NCBI GenBank assembly: GCA_038891095.1
Contig: JAWAEV010000001.1
Span: 5,248-69,247, forward strand
Length of the DNA stretch: 64,000 nt
Source: Candidatus Altiarchaeota archaeon
Lineage (GTDB): Archaea > Altiarchaeota > Altiarchaeia > IMC4 > QMZM01
Direction: 5' to 3'
Within the stretch, counting starts at the first letter, position 1, and the number at the start of each line of letters is the position of its first letter. The notes beneath the pieces are model-generated. The model did no database searches, was not told the origin of the DNA, and saw nothing but the letters and a program-made list of their open reading frames with translations. The position numbers and the translations under genes were made by a program. Of this stretch, positions 37,920-62,170 are shown piece after piece.

Positions 37920-38294
37920 ATGCCAGAAACAAAAAAAGACAGATTATTGGGAATTTTGAAAACTCTCACAGCAATAGGCGACATAGAAGGTTCAGCAATT
38001 GTTACAAGGGATGGTCTGCTTATTGCTTCAGATCTTCCAAGAGATGTTGATGCTGAGACATTTGCAGCAATGTCAGCAACAATGTTAGGAGCAGCAGAAA
38101 CTGCTGTAAGTGAGCTAAAGAGAGGTATAGTTGAAAGAGTCATTGCTGAAGGCAAGCAATCAAAGTTAATTGCAAAAGGCGCTGGTGCTTCAGCGGTTTT
38201 AGTTTCAATGGTAAGGCCTGATGCTAATCTTGGTTTAGTTTTAGTAGAGATAGGCAAAGCATCTGAGAAAATTGAGAAGGAGATGAGTGCATAA
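37920..38294 (+). CDS. Roadblock/LC7 (MglB-like) domain protein
   Basis: 124-aa alpha-beta-alpha protein with the conserved GSAIVTRDGLLIAS block. Markedly GC-richer than its neighbours. Confidence 0.75.
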   Translation: MPETKKDRLLGILKTLTAIGDIEGSAIVTRDGLLIASDLPRDVDAETFAAMSATMLGAAETAVSELKRGIVERVIAEGKQSKLIAKGAGASAVLVSMVRPDANLGLVLVEIGKASEKIEKEMSA

Positions 38295-38728
38295 TGGAAA
38301 AAAATAAATTAAAACTGCAAGAGGAATTACAAAGGAATCTATTAGAGTTAGAAATTTACAAGAAAAAATTTGAAAATTTAACTCAGGAAATGCAAATGGT
38401 TGAGTTATCCATAGTTGAATTAGACAACACTAAGAAAGCAATAAACATATTGAAAAATGAAAAATCCTCTGGAGAAACTCTCGTTTCTATAGGCTCTGGA
38501 GTTTACTCAAAAGCAAATAATTTAGATAATGAAAAAGTTCTTCTTGGTATTGGCGCAGGTTTTTATGTAGAGAAAACAATTGATGAAGCATCTAAAATTT
38601 TAGATGAAAGAATGGAAAAGTTGAGCAAAGTTGCTAATGAGATACAGAAAAATGCCTCAGATGTAAGTGATAAAATCTCGGAGTTAAATAACCTATCTGA
38701 AGATCTGCTGAGAGAATTACAAAAATAA
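38294..38728 (+). CDS. pfdA: Prefoldin alpha subunit
   Basis: 144 aa. Two coiled-coil arms flank a central beta-hairpin region (VSIGSGVY...LLGIGAGFYVEK). Confidence 0.75.
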   Translation: MEKNKLKLQEELQRNLLELEIYKKKFENLTQEMQMVELSIVELDNTKKAINILKNEKSSGETLVSIGSGVYSKANNLDNEKVLLGIGAGFYVEKTIDEASKILDERMEKLSKVANEIQKNASDVSDKISELNNLSEDLLRELQK

Positions 38729-38744
38729 TATCCCTAATTTTAAA

Positions 38745-39719
38745 ATGTTTGATTCTCTGAGAAAGAAAGTAGAGTCTTTCATTGGTGTTATCAGAAAAAC
38801 TAAGGAAGAAGAAAGCGAAAAAGAAGTTATAGAGTTGGGAAAAATAACAAAAATAAAGTATACTCTCAGTGATAAGATAAAATTTTCTAAGGAGGATATA
38901 GAGAGCATAATTGAAAATTTTCGGTTTGAATTAATTCAAGCAGATGTTGCTTATGAAACCTCAGAGAGAATAGCAGATATGATAAAAGAGGAATTATCAG
39001 GAAAAGAGATCCAAAAAAATGAATTGAATTCATTTGTAAGAGGAATATTTAGAAAGGTACTTCTTGAAATTTTAAATTCTGCTGAGGATTTAGATTTTTT
39101 TGATAAAGTTAAAAATTCTGAAAAACCATTTAAAATTATCTTTTTTGGGATAAACGGCTCTGGAAAAACAACAACAATTGCAAAAGTTGCATATCTTTTG
39201 TTGAAAAAAAATTTTTCAGTTGTATTTGCAGCTGCGGATACATTTAGAGCAGGAGCAATAGAGCAAATTGAAAAACATGCGCAAAATTTGAATGTTAGAG
39301 TTATAAAACATAAAAAAGGTGCTGATTCTGCTGCTGTAATTTATGATGCGATAGCACATGCAAAATCTAAGGGTATTGATGTAGTATTAGCCGACACTGC
39401 AGGAAGAATGCAAACTAACATAAATTTAATGGATGAAATGAAAAAGATCTGCAGAGTTAATAAACCAGATATGAAAATTTTTGTAGGTGACGCCCTAACA
39501 GGTAACGATGCAATTTCTCAAGCAGAAATGTTTGAAAAAGAGATTGGCATAGATGCTGTGATACTGACAAAAATGGACGCAGATGTAAAAGGTGGCTGTG
39601 CTCTCTCAATAATTAACACAATAAAAAAACCAATAATTTTTATTGGTGTGGGCCAGAGATACGAAGACTTGGTAGAGTTTGACAAGGAATGGTTTGTAGA
39701 TAAGATTGTGGGAAAGTAA
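38745..39719 (+). CDS. ftsY: Signal recognition particle receptor FtsY
   Basis: SRP GTPase motifs GINGSGKTTT, DTAGR, TKMD. Confidence 0.85.
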   Translation: MFDSLRKKVESFIGVIRKTKEEESEKEVIELGKITKIKYTLSDKIKFSKEDIESIIENFRFELIQADVAYETSERIADMIKEELSGKEIQKNELNSFVRGIFRKVLLEILNSAEDLDFFDKVKNSEKPFKIIFFGINGSGKTTTIAKVAYLLLKKNFSVVFAAADTFRAGAIEQIEKHAQNLNVRVIKHKKGADSAAVIYDAIAHAKSKGIDVVLADTAGRMQTNINLMDEMKKICRVNKPDMKIFVGDALTGNDAISQAEMFEKEIGIDAVILTKMDADVKGGCALSIINTIKKPIIFIGVGQRYEDLVEFDKEWFVDKIVGK

Positions 39720-40127
39720 GAAAAGTCATGATTAGTTTTTGGTATATAAGAGATTTATCATTCCATAATTAGTTATTTTACACTATGGGCTTTTTAAAGA
39801 AGACCGCCATATTTTTTTCAGTTTTGGTATTATTGATGTGATTGTTATGATTCCTAAGGTCAGAATAATTGATGATATCTCCAAAGTCGGATTACTTCGC
39901 ATAAGAGGTAAGGTAGCACAGATATACCCCGGAGTACATCCATATTGTTTTTCGCAATCTGCCAAGGGAAAGAGAGATTATTAGTTATGGCCCAATTAAA
40001 ACTTAAAAAAGAGCAACATTACAACCAGTGTAATTATTGCTGCTTTTGCTGCATCTGAATATTTTATAAAGAATAGAGCAAACTACTAAATAAAGGATAA
40101 AAGATAGGTAGAATAAATGATCTTGAA

Positions 40128-40151
40128 CCCGCAGTCTTTTTAGACTGCGGG
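40128..40151 (-). terminator. 10-bp perfect-stem hairpin (CCCGCAGTCT tttt AGACTGCGGG) about 75 nt downstream of the 40225-40701 gene
   Basis: Inverted repeat read from the sequence. The downstream tail is T-rich but not a clean T-run. Confidence 0.35.
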
Positions 40152-40224
40152 CGGAGGTGGTTGGTCTTGGCTCTCGGAGGTGGTTTGTTTAAGAAACCTC
40201 ACGAGCTTGATTCATGAACAAAAC

Positions 40225-40701
40225 TTATGACTTAATTTCTGATTTAATTTTGTAGTAAACTTTCCTTCCAACATATACCTTCTCCAAGATATTATCTTTG
40301 AATAGCTTACTCATTCTTGCTGATGCTGCATTTCTACCACGATATGCAAACTCTCTTTTTATATCATCTGCACAAACTTTGCCTTTTTCTTTTATGAAAT
40401 TTAATATTTCTATGTCCCTCTCTGAAAGCATTTCTGTTTTTGCTATGCCCATCTGGTTATTTTCAAATTTTTTATTTAGTATTGCTATCTGTTCGCATAG
40501 CATATTTAACTTTTCAATAATTGCATCAAATTTCGTGTTAATTTCCTTCACTATAAGATTTGTGCTATTCTTCTCTTTCTCTATGACATGAAGAAGCGCA
40601 GCTCCAGCAAATGGGTCCTCCATTGCCTCTATTATTTCAGATAACGGCCCGTATTGCGCTTTTAGATTTTCTTTATATTCTTCAACAGTTGGATTTTTCA
40701 T
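40225..40701 (-). CDS. Putative winged-helix (MarR/TrmB-like) transcriptional regulator
   Basis: 158 aa with a C-terminal wHTH-like segment (RDIEILNFIKEKGKVCADDIKREF...RMSKLFKDNILEKVYVGRKVYY). Divergent from the DUF58-radB operon. Confidence 0.45.
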   Translation of the reverse strand: MKNPTVEEYKENLKAQYGPLSEIIEAMEDPFAGAALLHVIEKEKNSTNLIVKEINTKFDAIIEKLNMLCEQIAILNKKFENNQMGIAKTEMLSERDIEILNFIKEKGKVCADDIKREFAYRGRNAASARMSKLFKDNILEKVYVGRKVYYKIKSEIKS

Positions 40702-40765
40702 GACTATTATGATTTAGTCATGATTCTATATAAATAGTTATCGTTTTTTAGCCAGTTTTTAGCCA

Positions 40766-40781
40766 AATTTTTGCAAAAATT
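40766..40781. promoter_or_regulatory. 16-bp perfect palindrome AATTTTTGCAAAAATT embedded in phased T5-tracts (TTTTTAGCCA x2, TTTTTAC, TTTTTAG) in the divergent intergenic region
   Basis: Self-complementary sequence read directly. T-tracts recur at roughly 10-11 bp spacing across 40745-40815. Confidence 0.35.
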
Positions 40782-40825
40782 AGGGTTTTTACCCAATTTT
40801 TCAGGATTTTTAGAGAATTTTCATA

Positions 40826-40859
40826 GGTTTTATATGTTAGGAACACATATATAAAAATT
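40826..40859 (+). promoter_or_regulatory. Candidate TATA boxes (ttttatatg / atatataaaaa) 15-45 bp upstream of the DUF58 start
   Basis: AT-rich TATA-like elements. Positional inference only. Confidence 0.3.
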
Positions 40860-40873
40860 AACAGGTAAAAAAG

Positions 40874-41755
40874 ATGATAGATACTGAGTTTTTAGAAAAT
40901 TTAAAAAATTTAAATTTCATAGCTCGGAAGAAAATTACAAGTGTATACATAGGTTCAAGAAGCTCAGTGATGCAAGGTCGTGGCTTAGAAATTTTTGACC
41001 ATAGAGAGTATTTCCCAGGAGATGATTTTAGAGCGATAGACTGGAAATTATATGGTAGAACTGAAAAATTATTCATTCGTCGCTTTGAGGAAGAAAAAAA
41101 TCTCACATTACATGTATTAATTGATTCAAGTAGAAGTATGGATTTTTCTCTTGGTGGAAAGAGAAAATTTGATTATGCAGAAAGTATTGCTATGGGCTTT
41201 ACATATTTAGCGATGATAAAATATGAAAAATTTTCAACAGCTTTATATGCTGAGAAAATTAGAGAAGTTACAGCAGCAAAAAAAGGGAAAAAACATTTCT
41301 TTAGTATTTTAGATTTGTTAAATAAAGTTGAACCATATGGCCAAAGTAAATTAAAAGAATCAATGGAACAGTATAGGAATTTTATAAAGACAAAATCCTT
41401 TGTTGTGTTAATATCTGACTTCTTAGAGGAGCTATCTTCAATAGAAGAAGGGCTTTACAGACTTGCAAAAAATTCAAAAGAATGTATTGCAATACAAATT
41501 TTAGATCCAAGTGAAATTTATCTTAAGTGGAATGAGGACATAAAATTTGAGGATTTAGAGACATATAGGACAGAGGTAGCTTACATAAGCCCAGGATTTA
41601 GAGAGGAATATAGAAGAAGAATAAAAGAGCACATATTCAAAATACAAAAAATTTGTGATGATTTAGATATAGAATTTTTTTTACTCACTACAGATATGCC
41701 ATTATTTGATTCATTTCTGAATATTTTAAGATTGAAAAAGAAGGTTATAATATAA
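40874..41755 (+). CDS. DUF58 domain protein (MoxR-associated, vWA-like fold)
   Basis: LEIFDHREYFPGDDFRAIDWKLYGRTEKLFIRRFEEEKNLTLHVLIDSSRSM matches the DUF58 core. Confidence 0.7.
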   Translation: MIDTEFLENLKNLNFIARKKITSVYIGSRSSVMQGRGLEIFDHREYFPGDDFRAIDWKLYGRTEKLFIRRFEEEKNLTLHVLIDSSRSMDFSLGGKRKFDYAESIAMGFTYLAMIKYEKFSTALYAEKIREVTAAKKGKKHFFSILDLLNKVEPYGQSKLKESMEQYRNFIKTKSFVVLISDFLEELSSIEEGLYRLAKNSKECIAIQILDPSEIYLKWNEDIKFEDLETYRTEVAYISPGFREEYRRRIKEHIFKIQKICDDLDIEFFLLTTDMPLFDSFLNILRLKKKVII

Positions 41756-42453
41756 TGGAAAAATTCATTTCAATACAAAAGGATTTTGATAAATTGATTG
41801 GTGGAGGTTTAATTTCAGGTAACATAACACATATTTATGGTCCGCCCGCATCTGGAAAAACAAATTTTGCTATGATAGCAATGAAAAATGCTGCCAAAGA
41901 AGGCAAAGTTATCTTCATCGACTCAGAAGGTGGTTTCTCCATAGAGAGACTAAAGCAAATTTCTGGTGAGGAATTTGAAAATGTTTTGAAAAATTTATTA
42001 TTAATTGAACCAACTGATTATGATGAGCAGAAAGTTGCAATTAAAAAGTTAGATGAACTTGTGCCAAAAGTAAGTGCAAAATTAGTCATTGTTGATTCAA
42101 TTGCTGTTCTTTATCGCTTAGAAGAGGAGAAAGATGTTAAGGAACTTGGAAGACAATTAGCTCAATTATTGAAAGTTGCAAGAAAGAATAATATTCCTGT
42201 GCTTATAACAAATCAAGTTTATACAGATATTAACACACAAAAAGTAGTGCCAATCGGTGGAGACATCTTGAGATATTGGGCAAAAATTGTAATTTCATTA
42301 GAAAAATTCAATGACCGAAGATTTGCAATTCTTGAAAAACATAAATTTCTTCCTGAAGGAGCAAAATTAGAATTTAAAATTTGTGAAAAAGGAATTGAGA
42401 TTATTGAAGAAGAAGTCGAAAGCTCTAAAACACAACAACCTTCACTCATTTGA
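41755..42453 (+). CDS. radB: DNA repair and recombination protein RadB (RecA-superfamily ATPase)
   Basis: 232 aa. GGGLISGNITHIYGPPASGKTNFA (Walker A). Reads collinear with Pyrococcus RadB along its length. Its start overlaps the DUF58 stop by 1 nt (TAATG). Confidence 0.8.
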   Translation: MEKFISIQKDFDKLIGGGLISGNITHIYGPPASGKTNFAMIAMKNAAKEGKVIFIDSEGGFSIERLKQISGEEFENVLKNLLLIEPTDYDEQKVAIKKLDELVPKVSAKLVIVDSIAVLYRLEEEKDVKELGRQLAQLLKVARKNNIPVLITNQVYTDINTQKVVPIGGDILRYWAKIVISLEKFNDRRFAILEKHKFLPEGAKLEFKICEKGIEIIEEEVESSKTQQPSLI

Positions 42454-48975: not shown

Positions 48976-49920
48976 CTATGACCTCATAGGTTCCAAAATT
49001 TCTATCAACGCCTCAGCAACAGCATTTTTTAAATCCTGAGGATGTAACTTGCCATCAAGATAGTAGCGCTCCAATTCATCATAGGAATTAAAAAATATGT
49101 CTCCTCCAAATTTCTCTTTGCGTTCAATTTCTATTTTCCCTTTTTTTGGGAAAATCAAATATTCACAAATTTGAAGAACTACATTGCTACTTACATCTTT
49201 TGGAGGACAATATGCTGATGCAATTTTTTTTCTAATGCTCTCTGGTTTTTCATCAACTGCAATTATTGTCTCTGGTTTTGAACTTGACATCTTCTGCTCT
49301 GGACCTTGAAGAGAAGATAAAAGTGGTGTATGTATACAAACAAATTTTTTATAATTTAATTCTGGCAATATCTCTCTTGCTAACATGTGAATTTTTCTTT
49401 GCTCCAAACCACCATGAGCAATGTCAACATCTAAGGCCTTTATATCTGCAATTTGCATTAAAGGATAGATCACTTGAGAAACTCTTGCGTGCTCTAAATC
49501 ACGAGCAATTTCCTGCATACTTCTTCTTGCTCTCATAAGTGTTGTCTTTAAACCTAATGTTAACACATCTCTTATGTAGTCTCTATTAAATTGGAAATCA
49601 GTGCCTTTTATAAATTCTGCCTCCCGCAAGCCAGCCTTCATTAATGTTTCTTTCCATATCTGCAACTGTTCCTCAATAAATTTTTCATCACCTTTTCTGT
49701 TAAGAAATGTATGCAAATCTGCAAGAAGAACTTTGACTTTCAACCCAGCATTTTGAAAATCAACTTGCTTTTGAATTGCAACAAGAGTGCCGATATGCAC
49801 AGGGCCAGATACCTCATAACCACAATATGTTATCGCTAATGGCTTTTTCTTAAGTAATTCATAAAGTTCTTCATGTGTTATAATTTCCTTTGTATTTCTT
49901 TCGATTAATGAGAGATCCAT
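48976..49920 (-). CDS. tyrS: Tyrosyl-tRNA synthetase (archaeal type)
   Basis: HIGT and KMSSS class I motifs. Start placed at MDLSLIERNTKEII. Confidence 0.8.
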   Translation of the reverse strand: MDLSLIERNTKEIITHEELYELLKKKPLAITYCGYEVSGPVHIGTLVAIQKQVDFQNAGLKVKVLLADLHTFLNRKGDEKFIEEQLQIWKETLMKAGLREAEFIKGTDFQFNRDYIRDVLTLGLKTTLMRARRSMQEIARDLEHARVSQVIYPLMQIADIKALDVDIAHGGLEQRKIHMLAREILPELNYKKFVCIHTPLLSSLQGPEQKMSSSKPETIIAVDEKPESIRKKIASAYCPPKDVSSNVVLQICEYLIFPKKGKIEIERKEKFGGDIFFNSYDELERYYLDGKLHPQDLKNAVAEALIEILEPMRS

Positions 49921-50165
49921 TAAATCACCCTTTCGAGTTCTCCAATTAAATTCCACAAAATTGTTTTTATATCCACTGGGATACTACTATCGTTAGATAT
50001 TGTATCTAATTCATATATTGCAGATGTCACTCTAACACCGATATCTTGCTTTTCATCTTTAAGATCAGAACAAATTTTATTTAACTTGTCTTTAACTCTC
50101 TTTGATAATTCTACATTTTCAGAAACTTCTTCTATTTTCTCTATTATTCTGTCCAAATCTGCCAT
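49920..50165 (-). CDS. Small conserved archaeal protein (UPF0147-like)
   Basis: 81 aa, helical, with NDSSIPVDIK motif. Its stop overlaps the tyrS start by 1 nt. Confidence 0.4.
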   Translation of the reverse strand: MADLDRIIEKIEEVSENVELSKRVKDKLNKICSDLKDEKQDIGVRVTSAIYELDTISNDSSIPVDIKTILWNLIGELERVI

Positions 50166-58628: not shown

Positions 58629-59185
58629 AATTAATTATGGAAAACGAATATGTTTTTAGGATATCCTGTTTGCCTTTTATTTCTATTTGACAGAATAAGT
58701 TGAATAGCAAGATAGAAATTCACATAAAAGAAGTTACGATGAATGCAAATTTTGGAAGTTCTAAGGAAGTTATAAAAAATTTATTCTATGAAAGAATTGC
58801 TGAAATAACATTTAGTTCAGTTATTAAAAATGTTAGTTCACAAAATTAAAGGAGGAGGTATTTTAATAATTTTTATAAATTTAAAATTTATAAGGTTGGC
58901 AGTGACCATAGTCCATCTTCTGTCAGCTTTTTAAGCCACGCTTAAGTTAGCTGTTTTGGCATTCGTCTAAGCGTTTTAAAAAACTTGCACCCAACGCAAC
59001 ATTTGTCTCACAAGATTTTGCAATTTTCTCTCAGATAGGATACTTCATAGAAATTGCAAAATCATCTCATCTCTCGTATGTTGCTTTGCCTCTCGGCAAT
59101 TAAAAATTTATTGGGTGGATGGAGCTTCCTCATTCTCATTTAAGAGAACGGTAGCCAAATGAGTCACTACCTCCGAATATTTCTT

Positions 59186-62170
<2,985 letters not shown>

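Follow-up and report, generated by a model that had tools for sequence, protein, structure and literature searches.

MoxR heads operons that also contain genes for DUF58, von Willebrand factor type A (vWA) and TPR proteins (PMC11834572). RadB, a paralogue of Rad51 and RadA, is a recombination mediator in Haloferax volcanii, and in Pyrococcales its gene lies in an operon with polD1 (Wardell et al., PMC5480776). A different arrangement is found in a contig of Candidatus Altiarchaeota archaeon (GenBank assembly GCA_038891095.1, contig JAWAEV010000001.1), of which a stretch of 64,000 nucleotides, referred to here as the window, was analysed as a whole. In the window, a DUF58 gene stands directly upstream of radB on the same strand, and a gene for a winged-helix protein is transcribed divergently from the pair (Table 1). 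Coordinates are positions in the window and L-numbers denote loci of relatives. A first-pass annotation regarded DUF58 and RadB as functionally coupled, under a winged-helix regulator acting on a palindrome in the shared intergenic region. The evidence considered below makes a different account probable: DUF58 was rearranged to a position beside radB without shared function, the winged-helix protein represses its own gene, and a curved DNA element has an architectural role in the promoter region.

Usual partners of DUF58 and radB

The usual partners of DUF58 that the first-pass annotation had named, MoxR and vWA proteins, agree with the published operons and with the loci sampled here. MoxR (AAA_3 with AAA_lid_2) is encoded immediately upstream of DUF58 in 38 of the 53 assessable loci, and a gene for a BatA-N/vWA membrane protein follows DUF58 in 24. 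The DUF58 protein of the window is a clear orthologue of those encoded in MoxR-DUF58-BatA (Bat/MRP-type) operons, with 43-60% identity, equal length and the same invariant residues of the metal ion-dependent adhesion site (MIDAS). Its surroundings differ, in that the divergent winged-helix gene takes the place of MoxR upstream and radB that of the BatA/vWA gene downstream. Searches with tblastn across the window detected no MoxR, BatA-like or Mre11-like gene.

The RadB protein of the window is likewise typical of archaeal RadB in scoring above the RadB equivalog cut-off and in being a short protein that consists of the RecA core only, with Walker A and B motifs. Its gene neighbour is unlike those of other RadB proteins, being DUF58 rather than polD1 as in Pyrococcales (PMC5480776) or an Mre11-like nuclease as in other Altiarchaeota. 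In the loci where radB is 61-68% identical (L001, L002, L174, L175), the same-strand gene directly upstream encodes a metallophosphoesterase of 357-387 aa, for which the best NCBIfam matches are the Mre11 and SbcD models, at scores far below the equivalog cut-offs. An Mre11-like nuclease is thus a recurrent neighbour, and a functionally plausible partner, of radB in other Altiarchaeota. Downstream of radB, the order UDP-glucose dehydrogenase (UGDH)-cupin-purA-GGR-like gene is common to the window and other Altiarchaeota. This block is otherwise conserved, and at its edge DUF58 stands where the others have the Mre11-like gene. The neighbours of radB in other archaea are variable, with no dominant partner.

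Conservation of the DUF58-radB pair

The adjacency was examined from both sides. The radB sample comprised the best 80 matches in a GTDB-based genome collection, each from a different archaeal species, and spanned two other Altiarchaeales, Methanosarcinales, Methanobrevibacter, Methanocaldococcus, Methanomicrobiales, Methanocella, Halobacteriales, Hydrothermarchaeales, Methanomassiliicoccales and many DPANN lineages. In none of these 80 loci was DUF58 found within 6 kb of radB, either by tblastn or with the DUF58 hidden Markov model on called open reading frames (ORFs). Among the best 80 DUF58 matches, which came from metagenomes, radB follows DUF58 in a single locus (L081, DUF58 77% identical).

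The limits of the pair were set by exact-protein look-ups of relatives. In the closest (L163, DUF58 90% identical) the arrangement is that of the window and the overlap of the two genes is kept. In L081 about 65 nt separate DUF58 from the radB gene that follows it. The distance is 21 nt in L162 (71% identical), where a trehalose-synthase gene stands upstream and the winged-helix gene lies 5 kb off. At 69% identity (L176/L177) the order is TreT, DUF58 and then a convergent beta-propeller gene, with no radB; at 60% and 57% identity (L082, L083) MoxR precedes DUF58 and unrelated genes follow. The pair is therefore confined to a shallow subclade, being present where DUF58 is at least 71% identical and gone at 69%. 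Because it is limited to the closest relatives in these look-ups, the adjacency would have had a single origin, within a shallow subclade of Altiarchaeota.

The functional coupling proposed in the first-pass annotation thus finds no support in gene order. Lack of conservation in relatives had been named there as a sign of chance juxtaposition, and essentially this was observed, the adjacency being conserved in no more than a few close relatives. Coupling of DUF58 to RadB had also been described as unreported; a search for the two names together agreed with this, as no paper in the literature library searched mentions both. The DUF58-RadB pairing looks like a recent accident of gene order. In the proposed history, a rearrangement in the shallow subclade would have split DUF58 from its usual MoxR partner and placed it directly upstream of radB, in the slot held by the Mre11-like nuclease gene of other Altiarchaeota. 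Co-expression of the two genes would then reflect genome compaction and not a shared function.

In two relatives from the clade of DUF58 genes that lack MoxR, a gene for trehalose synthesis lies upstream of DUF58. The enzyme types differ: L162 has a TPS/TPP fusion, whereas L176 (like L177) has TreT. A gene for an MscS channel is nearby.

The winged-helix protein and its promoter

The product of the divergent gene consists of a long N-terminal helix of 53 residues (30-82) and a C-terminal winged helix (residues ~94-152). An AlphaFold2 model built on 29 homologues had a mean predicted local distance difference test score of 81.6 overall, and above 90 in the C-terminal domain. In Foldseek the best matches of the model were the ArsR/SmtB proteins AntR, HlyU and SmtB, with E-values of 1.6e-3 to 7e-3 and TM-scores of 0.55-0.67, normalised by target, over 75-82 aligned residues. 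No Pfam family matched, the helix-turn-helix families included, and the NCBIfam ArsR/SmtB model NF033788 (HTH_metalloreg) scored 21.9 bits, below its cut-off of 55. The predicted structure supports the winged-helix fold class for this protein, short of membership of ArsR/SmtB. There are 38 detectable homologues, and every one that carries a name is from Altiarchaeota, to which the family appears to be restricted.

Alignment of the upstream regions of eleven orthologues, the proteins of which are 44-57% identical, brings out a strongly conserved non-coding block. It begins with AAACGAAAAGTATTTATAT, which we take, on the general archaeal promoter consensus, to be the transcription factor B recognition element (BRE) and TATA box, and continues as (G)TCATGAC-TAAATCATAAT-AN-TCATGA, in which the palindromic hexamers are 20 nt apart. 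Both the BRE/TATA and the TCATGA pair are kept at the same position in 9 of the 11 promoters. In the window the pair lies downstream of the TATA box and reaches over the start codon, which the second hexamer contains. TCATGA-N14-TCATGA occurs once in the 64 kb, against 0.02-0.04 copies expected by chance. Further copies of the pair, or of GTCATGAC or TTTTTAGCCA, that could form the sites of a regulon were not found beyond chance in the window. The TATA box is centred ~29.5 nt away from the ATG, which predicts an mRNA with little or no leader.

An operator over the transcription start, downstream of the TATA box, is at the classic site for an archaeal repressor that blocks polymerase recruitment. 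Because the TCATGA pair is conserved and lies over the gene's own transcription and translation start, autorepression is the preferred model and the most likely one, with the winged-helix protein binding TCATGA-N14-TCATGA as a dimeric repressor of its own gene. The closest described systems are the autoregulated repressors of the ArsR/SmtB or MarR type. Points of likeness are a C-terminal domain with a predicted fold similar to AntR, HlyU and SmtB, and a conserved inverted repeat that, in the regulator's own gene, is located between TATA box and start codon. Unlike those repressors, the protein lacks family membership at the sequence level, carries its long N-terminal helix where ArsR proteins have dimerisation helices, and comes from a family apparently peculiar to one phylum. 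In three orthologous promoters (L164, L169, L173) a second TCATGA pair is present upstream of the TATA box, where the window has GGCTAAAAAC repeats. The extra hexamers of these three loci flank the TATA box and are spaced 20 and 31 nt apart, an arrangement suggestive of a regulator that binds two or more operators cooperatively.

The winged-helix protein was also proposed to be the dedicated regulator of DUF58 and radB, a role that gene order does not support. Its gene is syntenic with a convergent ftsY-prefoldin(-rpiA-thrS) block, shared by the window, L164, L167, L169, L172 and L173. On the promoter side its neighbour varies between fibrillarin, ribD, aconitase, uvrC and mscS. DUF58 occupies that position only in the window and in L163, a relative with 90% identical proteins; in seven other loci the neighbour is unrelated. 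As the promoter-side gene differs between genomes, a role dedicated to DUF58-radB is not indicated. A further rearrangement, in the lineage of the window, would have brought the ftsY/winged-helix block beside DUF58.

A phased T-tract element between two promoters

Eight T4-T6 tracts take up the entire interval that separates the winged-helix TATA box (40727-40734) from the first TATA-like element upstream of DUF58 (40828-40835). They start at intervals of 12, 12, 18, 11, 10, 11 and 10 nt, which add up to 84 bp (8 x 10.5). The single 18-nt interval is filled by the A5 half of the palindrome discussed below, and TTTTTAGCCA occurs twice (at 40745 and 40756). The periodicity of A/T-tracts at 10-11.5 bp reaches a power of 5.5, compared with 3.4 at the next independent site, and ranks first of 12,780 windows. 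With an AA-wedge model and the wedge parameters assumed for it, the ratio of end-to-end distance to contour length was predicted to be 0.43, while the next most curved site gave 0.76 and the median was 0.96. This is the highest predicted curvature in the window, first of 63,896. The bent DNA suggested by the first-pass annotation from two phased tracts is therefore upheld as a prediction and extended to eight.

The element has changed little since divergence from L163. From 40702 to 40812 there are no substitutions and two single-base deletions, both in homopolymer runs, while 35-60% of synonymous sites differ in seven flanking genes (35-45% in all but the cupin gene; synonymous divergence, dS, about 0.5-1.2) and two other local spacers are about 35% alignable. 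Since this stretch is free of substitutions and the flanking synonymous sites have diverged, the comparison indicates that the element is under strong purifying selection in this lineage. Extreme curvature is limited to the window (0.43) and L163 (0.595). Values of 0.85-0.95 were predicted for the other orthologous winged-helix promoters, and the idea that strong curvature is conserved wherever this regulator's promoter occurs was accordingly rejected. In L162 there are three phased A-tracts made of AAAAATCATG units, and such units, which contain the TCATGA motif, are found in relatives at positions corresponding to the array. From these comparisons the array is concluded to be a lineage-specific expansion of an A-tract feature upstream of the winged-helix gene.

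Its role is most likely architectural, as a ~90-bp element of predicted intrinsic curvature that would govern how the two core promoters, which lie back to back, are arranged in space or occupied. The array resembles the phased A/T-tract curved DNA described upstream of promoters in its eight T4-T6 tracts, its phasing of ~10.5 bp, its extreme predicted curvature and its place directly upstream of two core promoters. It differs in that these are back-to-back archaeal BRE/TATA promoters and in being lineage-specific.

A somewhat improbable alternative is that the tracts act through their sequence and not their shape, either as oligo-T terminators or as an array that binds or positions a chromatin protein or the winged-helix protein. 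Oligo-T is an archaeal transcription termination signal, all eight tracts are T on the plus strand with at least five T in six of them, and ftsY is transcribed toward the array from upstream; plus-strand read-through, antisense to the winged-helix gene, would then be stopped before it reached the DUF58 promoter. The repeat units are also alike beyond the T-run, as seen in TTTTTAGCCA, TTTTTACCCA and TTTTTAGAGA, and relatives have the TCATGA-containing units at the corresponding positions. The tracts nevertheless fit 10.5 bp closely, a helical phasing that termination does not require, and TTTTTAGCCA shows no enrichment over the rest of the window (13 matches, 16.8 expected).

The 16-bp palindrome

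The perfect 16-bp palindrome AATTTTTGCAAAAATT reported in the first-pass annotation is present, inside the T-tract array. The proposal that the winged-helix protein uses it as an operator to control the two divergent promoters is unlikely to hold. Dimeric winged helix-turn-helix proteins typically bind palindromes, and this one is perfectly symmetrical, lies roughly midway between the two TATA boxes and shares in the conservation of the array with respect to L163. Against this, palindromes of such length are within chance expectation in DNA of 30% GC (6 perfect palindromes of at least 16 bp in the window, 3.1 +/- 1.7 in dinucleotide shuffles). In L163 one A is lost, and the 1-nt deletion breaks the symmetry. 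No counterpart is found in the orthologous winged-helix promoters, nine of which keep TCATGA pairs instead, and the regulator is not syntenic with DUF58-radB. Because it falls within the 111 nt that lack substitutions, the palindrome may still be functional in the lineage of the window. The preferred operator remains the TCATGA pair.

The DUF58/RadB junction and a proposed functional module

The 1-nt overlap on which the first-pass annotation built is real: within TAATG, the last A of the DUF58 stop codon TAA (41753-41755) is the first base of the RadB ATG (41755-41757). A Shine-Dalgarno-like AGGT lies 9 nt 5' of this ATG (AGGAG in L163) and is complementary to the 16S 3' end GGATCACCTCC. On the DUF58 side, sequence inspection points to a putative promoter for the pair, with two TATA-like elements and a Shine-Dalgarno-like AGGT (Table 1); L163 keeps the TATA-like elements and lacks this AGGT. 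DUF58 and radB are very probably co-transcribed in this genome, and radB may be translationally coupled to DUF58. Neither co-transcription nor translational coupling implies a shared function of the two proteins.

An overlap of stop and start on one strand, which leaves no room for a terminator, is what would be expected of translational coupling, but the base rate is high. Overlaps were present in 11 of the 34 same-strand adjacent ORF pairs of the window, and 8 of these overlaps measure exactly 1 or 4 nt. Two further 1-nt overlaps join apparently unrelated genes, namely Roadblock-LC7-like/prefoldin (37920-38294 / 38294-38728) and an aminoacyl-tRNA synthetase (PF00579, tRNA-synt_1b)/UPF0147 (48976-49920 / 49920-50165), and illustrate the compactness of the genome. 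As overlaps are common in the window, and that of DUF58 and radB is kept only in the 90% identical relative, it is weak evidence of functional coupling.

It is distinctly unlikely that DUF58 and RadB form a genuine module of the subclade, in which a vWA/MIDAS protein without MoxR would have been recruited to act with RadB, a RecA-fold ATPase, taking over from the Mre11-like partner and being co-translated with RadB in fixed stoichiometry. In its favour, four genomes of the clade have the two genes close together on one strand, the two closest genomes keep both the TAATG overlap and the Shine-Dalgarno-like element inside DUF58, and DUF58 stands exactly in the slot of the Mre11-like gene. It also has no MoxR or BatA neighbours and yet is under purifying selection. 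Other observations oppose such a module. The pair is missing in the sister lineage at 69% identity and in all 80 radB loci of other species, and the overlap itself is lost at 77% and 71% identity. The synteny radB-UGDH-cupin-purA is kept equally well, so that retention of the pair needs no special selection; judging from these gene orders, it is fully accounted for by general synteny among close relatives. Unrelated genes of the window often overlap, as noted above, and DUF58 retains every invariant residue of its MoxR-linked orthologues.

A number of points weigh against the reading preferred here, that of rearrangement without shared function together with an autorepressor and a curved promoter element. 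The pair stays on one strand and close together (-1, 21 and ~65 nt) in relatives down to 71% identity, and the DUF58 genes of the clade have no MoxR nearby but are under purifying selection, with a ratio of nonsynonymous to synonymous substitution rates (dN/dS) of 0.09 between the window and L163. A functional link specific to the clade is still conceivable for these two reasons. The search for MoxR covered just 64 kb of the genome, the 80-locus samples of radB and DUF58 are best matches and not exhaustive, the curvature values depend on the assumed wedge parameters, and the palindrome belongs to the substitution-free stretch. Finally, it is highly improbable that in this subclade a MoxR-less DUF58 was captured as the partner of RadB in place of the Mre11-like nuclease and is expressed from a promoter shaped by a curved, selectively frozen 90-bp element. 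If true, this would amount to a repair module of a vWA protein and a RecA paralogue, with a loose resemblance to the vWA domains of Ku.

Gene identities and other features of the window

All three gene calls of the first-pass annotation (winged helix, DUF58, RadB) proved correct, the first by the fold of the AlphaFold2 model in Foldseek and the others by family models above their cut-offs. The DUF58 product scores 145.4 bits against PF01882 (gathering cut-off 23.4), with weak vWA matches, and its MIDAS-type residues D84, S86 and S88 are invariant in an alignment of 21 orthologues. RadB scores 250.8 bits against TIGR02237 recomb_radB (cut-off 172.4) and covers positions 2-210 of the 210 in the model. 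Its Walker A motif is GPPASGKT and its Walker B motif LVIVDS, and the Rad51 Pfam match extends over residues 9-215. RadA models align with it solely through their C-terminal core (positions 85-314), and a RadA-type N-terminal helix-hairpin-helix domain is absent. A convergent UGDH gene adjoins the 3' end of radB. Both the DUF58 and the RadB protein have identical counterparts at NCBI that are assigned to a Candidatus Altiarchaeota MAG.

The window has ~30% G+C and is about 92% coding. Between the convergent ftsY and winged-helix genes there is a spacer of 505 nt with no convincing ORF or Rfam match, which contains a GC-rich hairpin; the corresponding spacer of L163 is 1138 nt long and essentially unalignable with it. 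A scan for sigma-70 promoters and intrinsic terminators, bacterial-type signals that are uninformative for an archaeon, gave counts at or below shuffle expectation, and its sole intergenic 'terminator' was the TCATGA inverted repeat. Rfam searches of the whole window, and at permissive E-values over 39650-40900, assigned no RNA family to the divergent intergenic region. The best match around it, an Enterococcus sRNA with E = 0.43, was taken as chance. A tRNA scan found none close to the DUF58-radB locus. Elsewhere in the window Rfam identified archaeal RNase P RNA and archaeal 16S and 23S rRNA, the latter two arranged as a 16S-tRNA(Ala)-23S operon. The RNase P RNA begins 36 nt past the 3' end of the 23S rRNA, a frequent site of the 5S gene; no 5S rRNA was detected by Rfam in the whole window.

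Table 1. Positions of features in the window and in loci of relatives (the latter prefixed by the locus).
Feature	Position	Strand	Details
Winged-helix gene	40225-40701	-	ORF call; 158-aa product
Divergent intergenic region	40702-40873		172 nt, between winged-helix gene and DUF58
TCATGA-N14-TCATGA inverted repeat	40698-40723		TCATGACTA-N8-TAGTCATGA; candidate autoregulatory operator
Winged-helix core promoter	40727-40746	-	TATA TTTATATA at 40734-40727, preceded by BRE-like AAAACGATAAC
Eight phased T4-T6 tracts	40744-40831	+	predicted strongly curved
Perfect 16-bp palindrome	40766-40781		AATTTTTGCAAAAATT, inside T-tract array
Putative DUF58-radB promoter region	40828-40866	+	TATA-like TTTTATAT at 40828-40835 and TATATAAA at 40848-40855; Shine-Dalgarno-like AGGT at 40863-40866
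DUF58 gene	40874-41755	+	PF01882, vWA-like, MIDAS DxSxS
DUF58/RadB junction	41742-41757	+	AGGT at 41742-41745 in 3' end of DUF58; TAATG at 41753-41757
radB	41755-42453	+	TIGR02237, RecA/Rad51-family paralogue, 232 aa
ftsY/winged-helix spacer	39720-40224		505 nt
GC-rich hairpin	40128-40151		CCCGCAGTC-N6-GACTGCGGG
RNase P RNA (RF00373)	58898-59171	-	archaeal; 90.4 bits, gathering score 84
23S rRNA	59208-62126	-	
Mre11/SbcD-like metallophosphoesterase	L001:4923-5996, L002:4791-5954, L174:3689-4777, L175:413-1519		
Extra TCATGA hexamers	L164:3849-3992, L169:3916-3992, L173:1867-1965		
TPS/TPP fusion gene	L162:5679-7892		
TreT gene	L176:3489-4691		also in L177

Implications

If DUF58 and RadB were functionally linked, DUF58 would for the first time have a role beyond MoxR systems, and RadB would gain a new partner. 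Such a link is opposed by the comparative data; the pairing is undescribed, yet not meaningful on present evidence, and is not to be taken as a lead on the function of either protein. The value of the locus lies elsewhere. It provides TCATGA-N14-TCATGA as a candidate operator for an uncharacterised, apparently Altiarchaeota-restricted winged-helix family, and draws attention to an Mre11-like nuclease as a recurrent upstream neighbour of radB in Altiarchaeota. It also offers a natural case of DNA that is predicted to be extremely curved, and appears strongly constrained, between two archaeal core promoters, an element that may be used to ask how the shape of DNA affects the recruitment of TBP and TFB.

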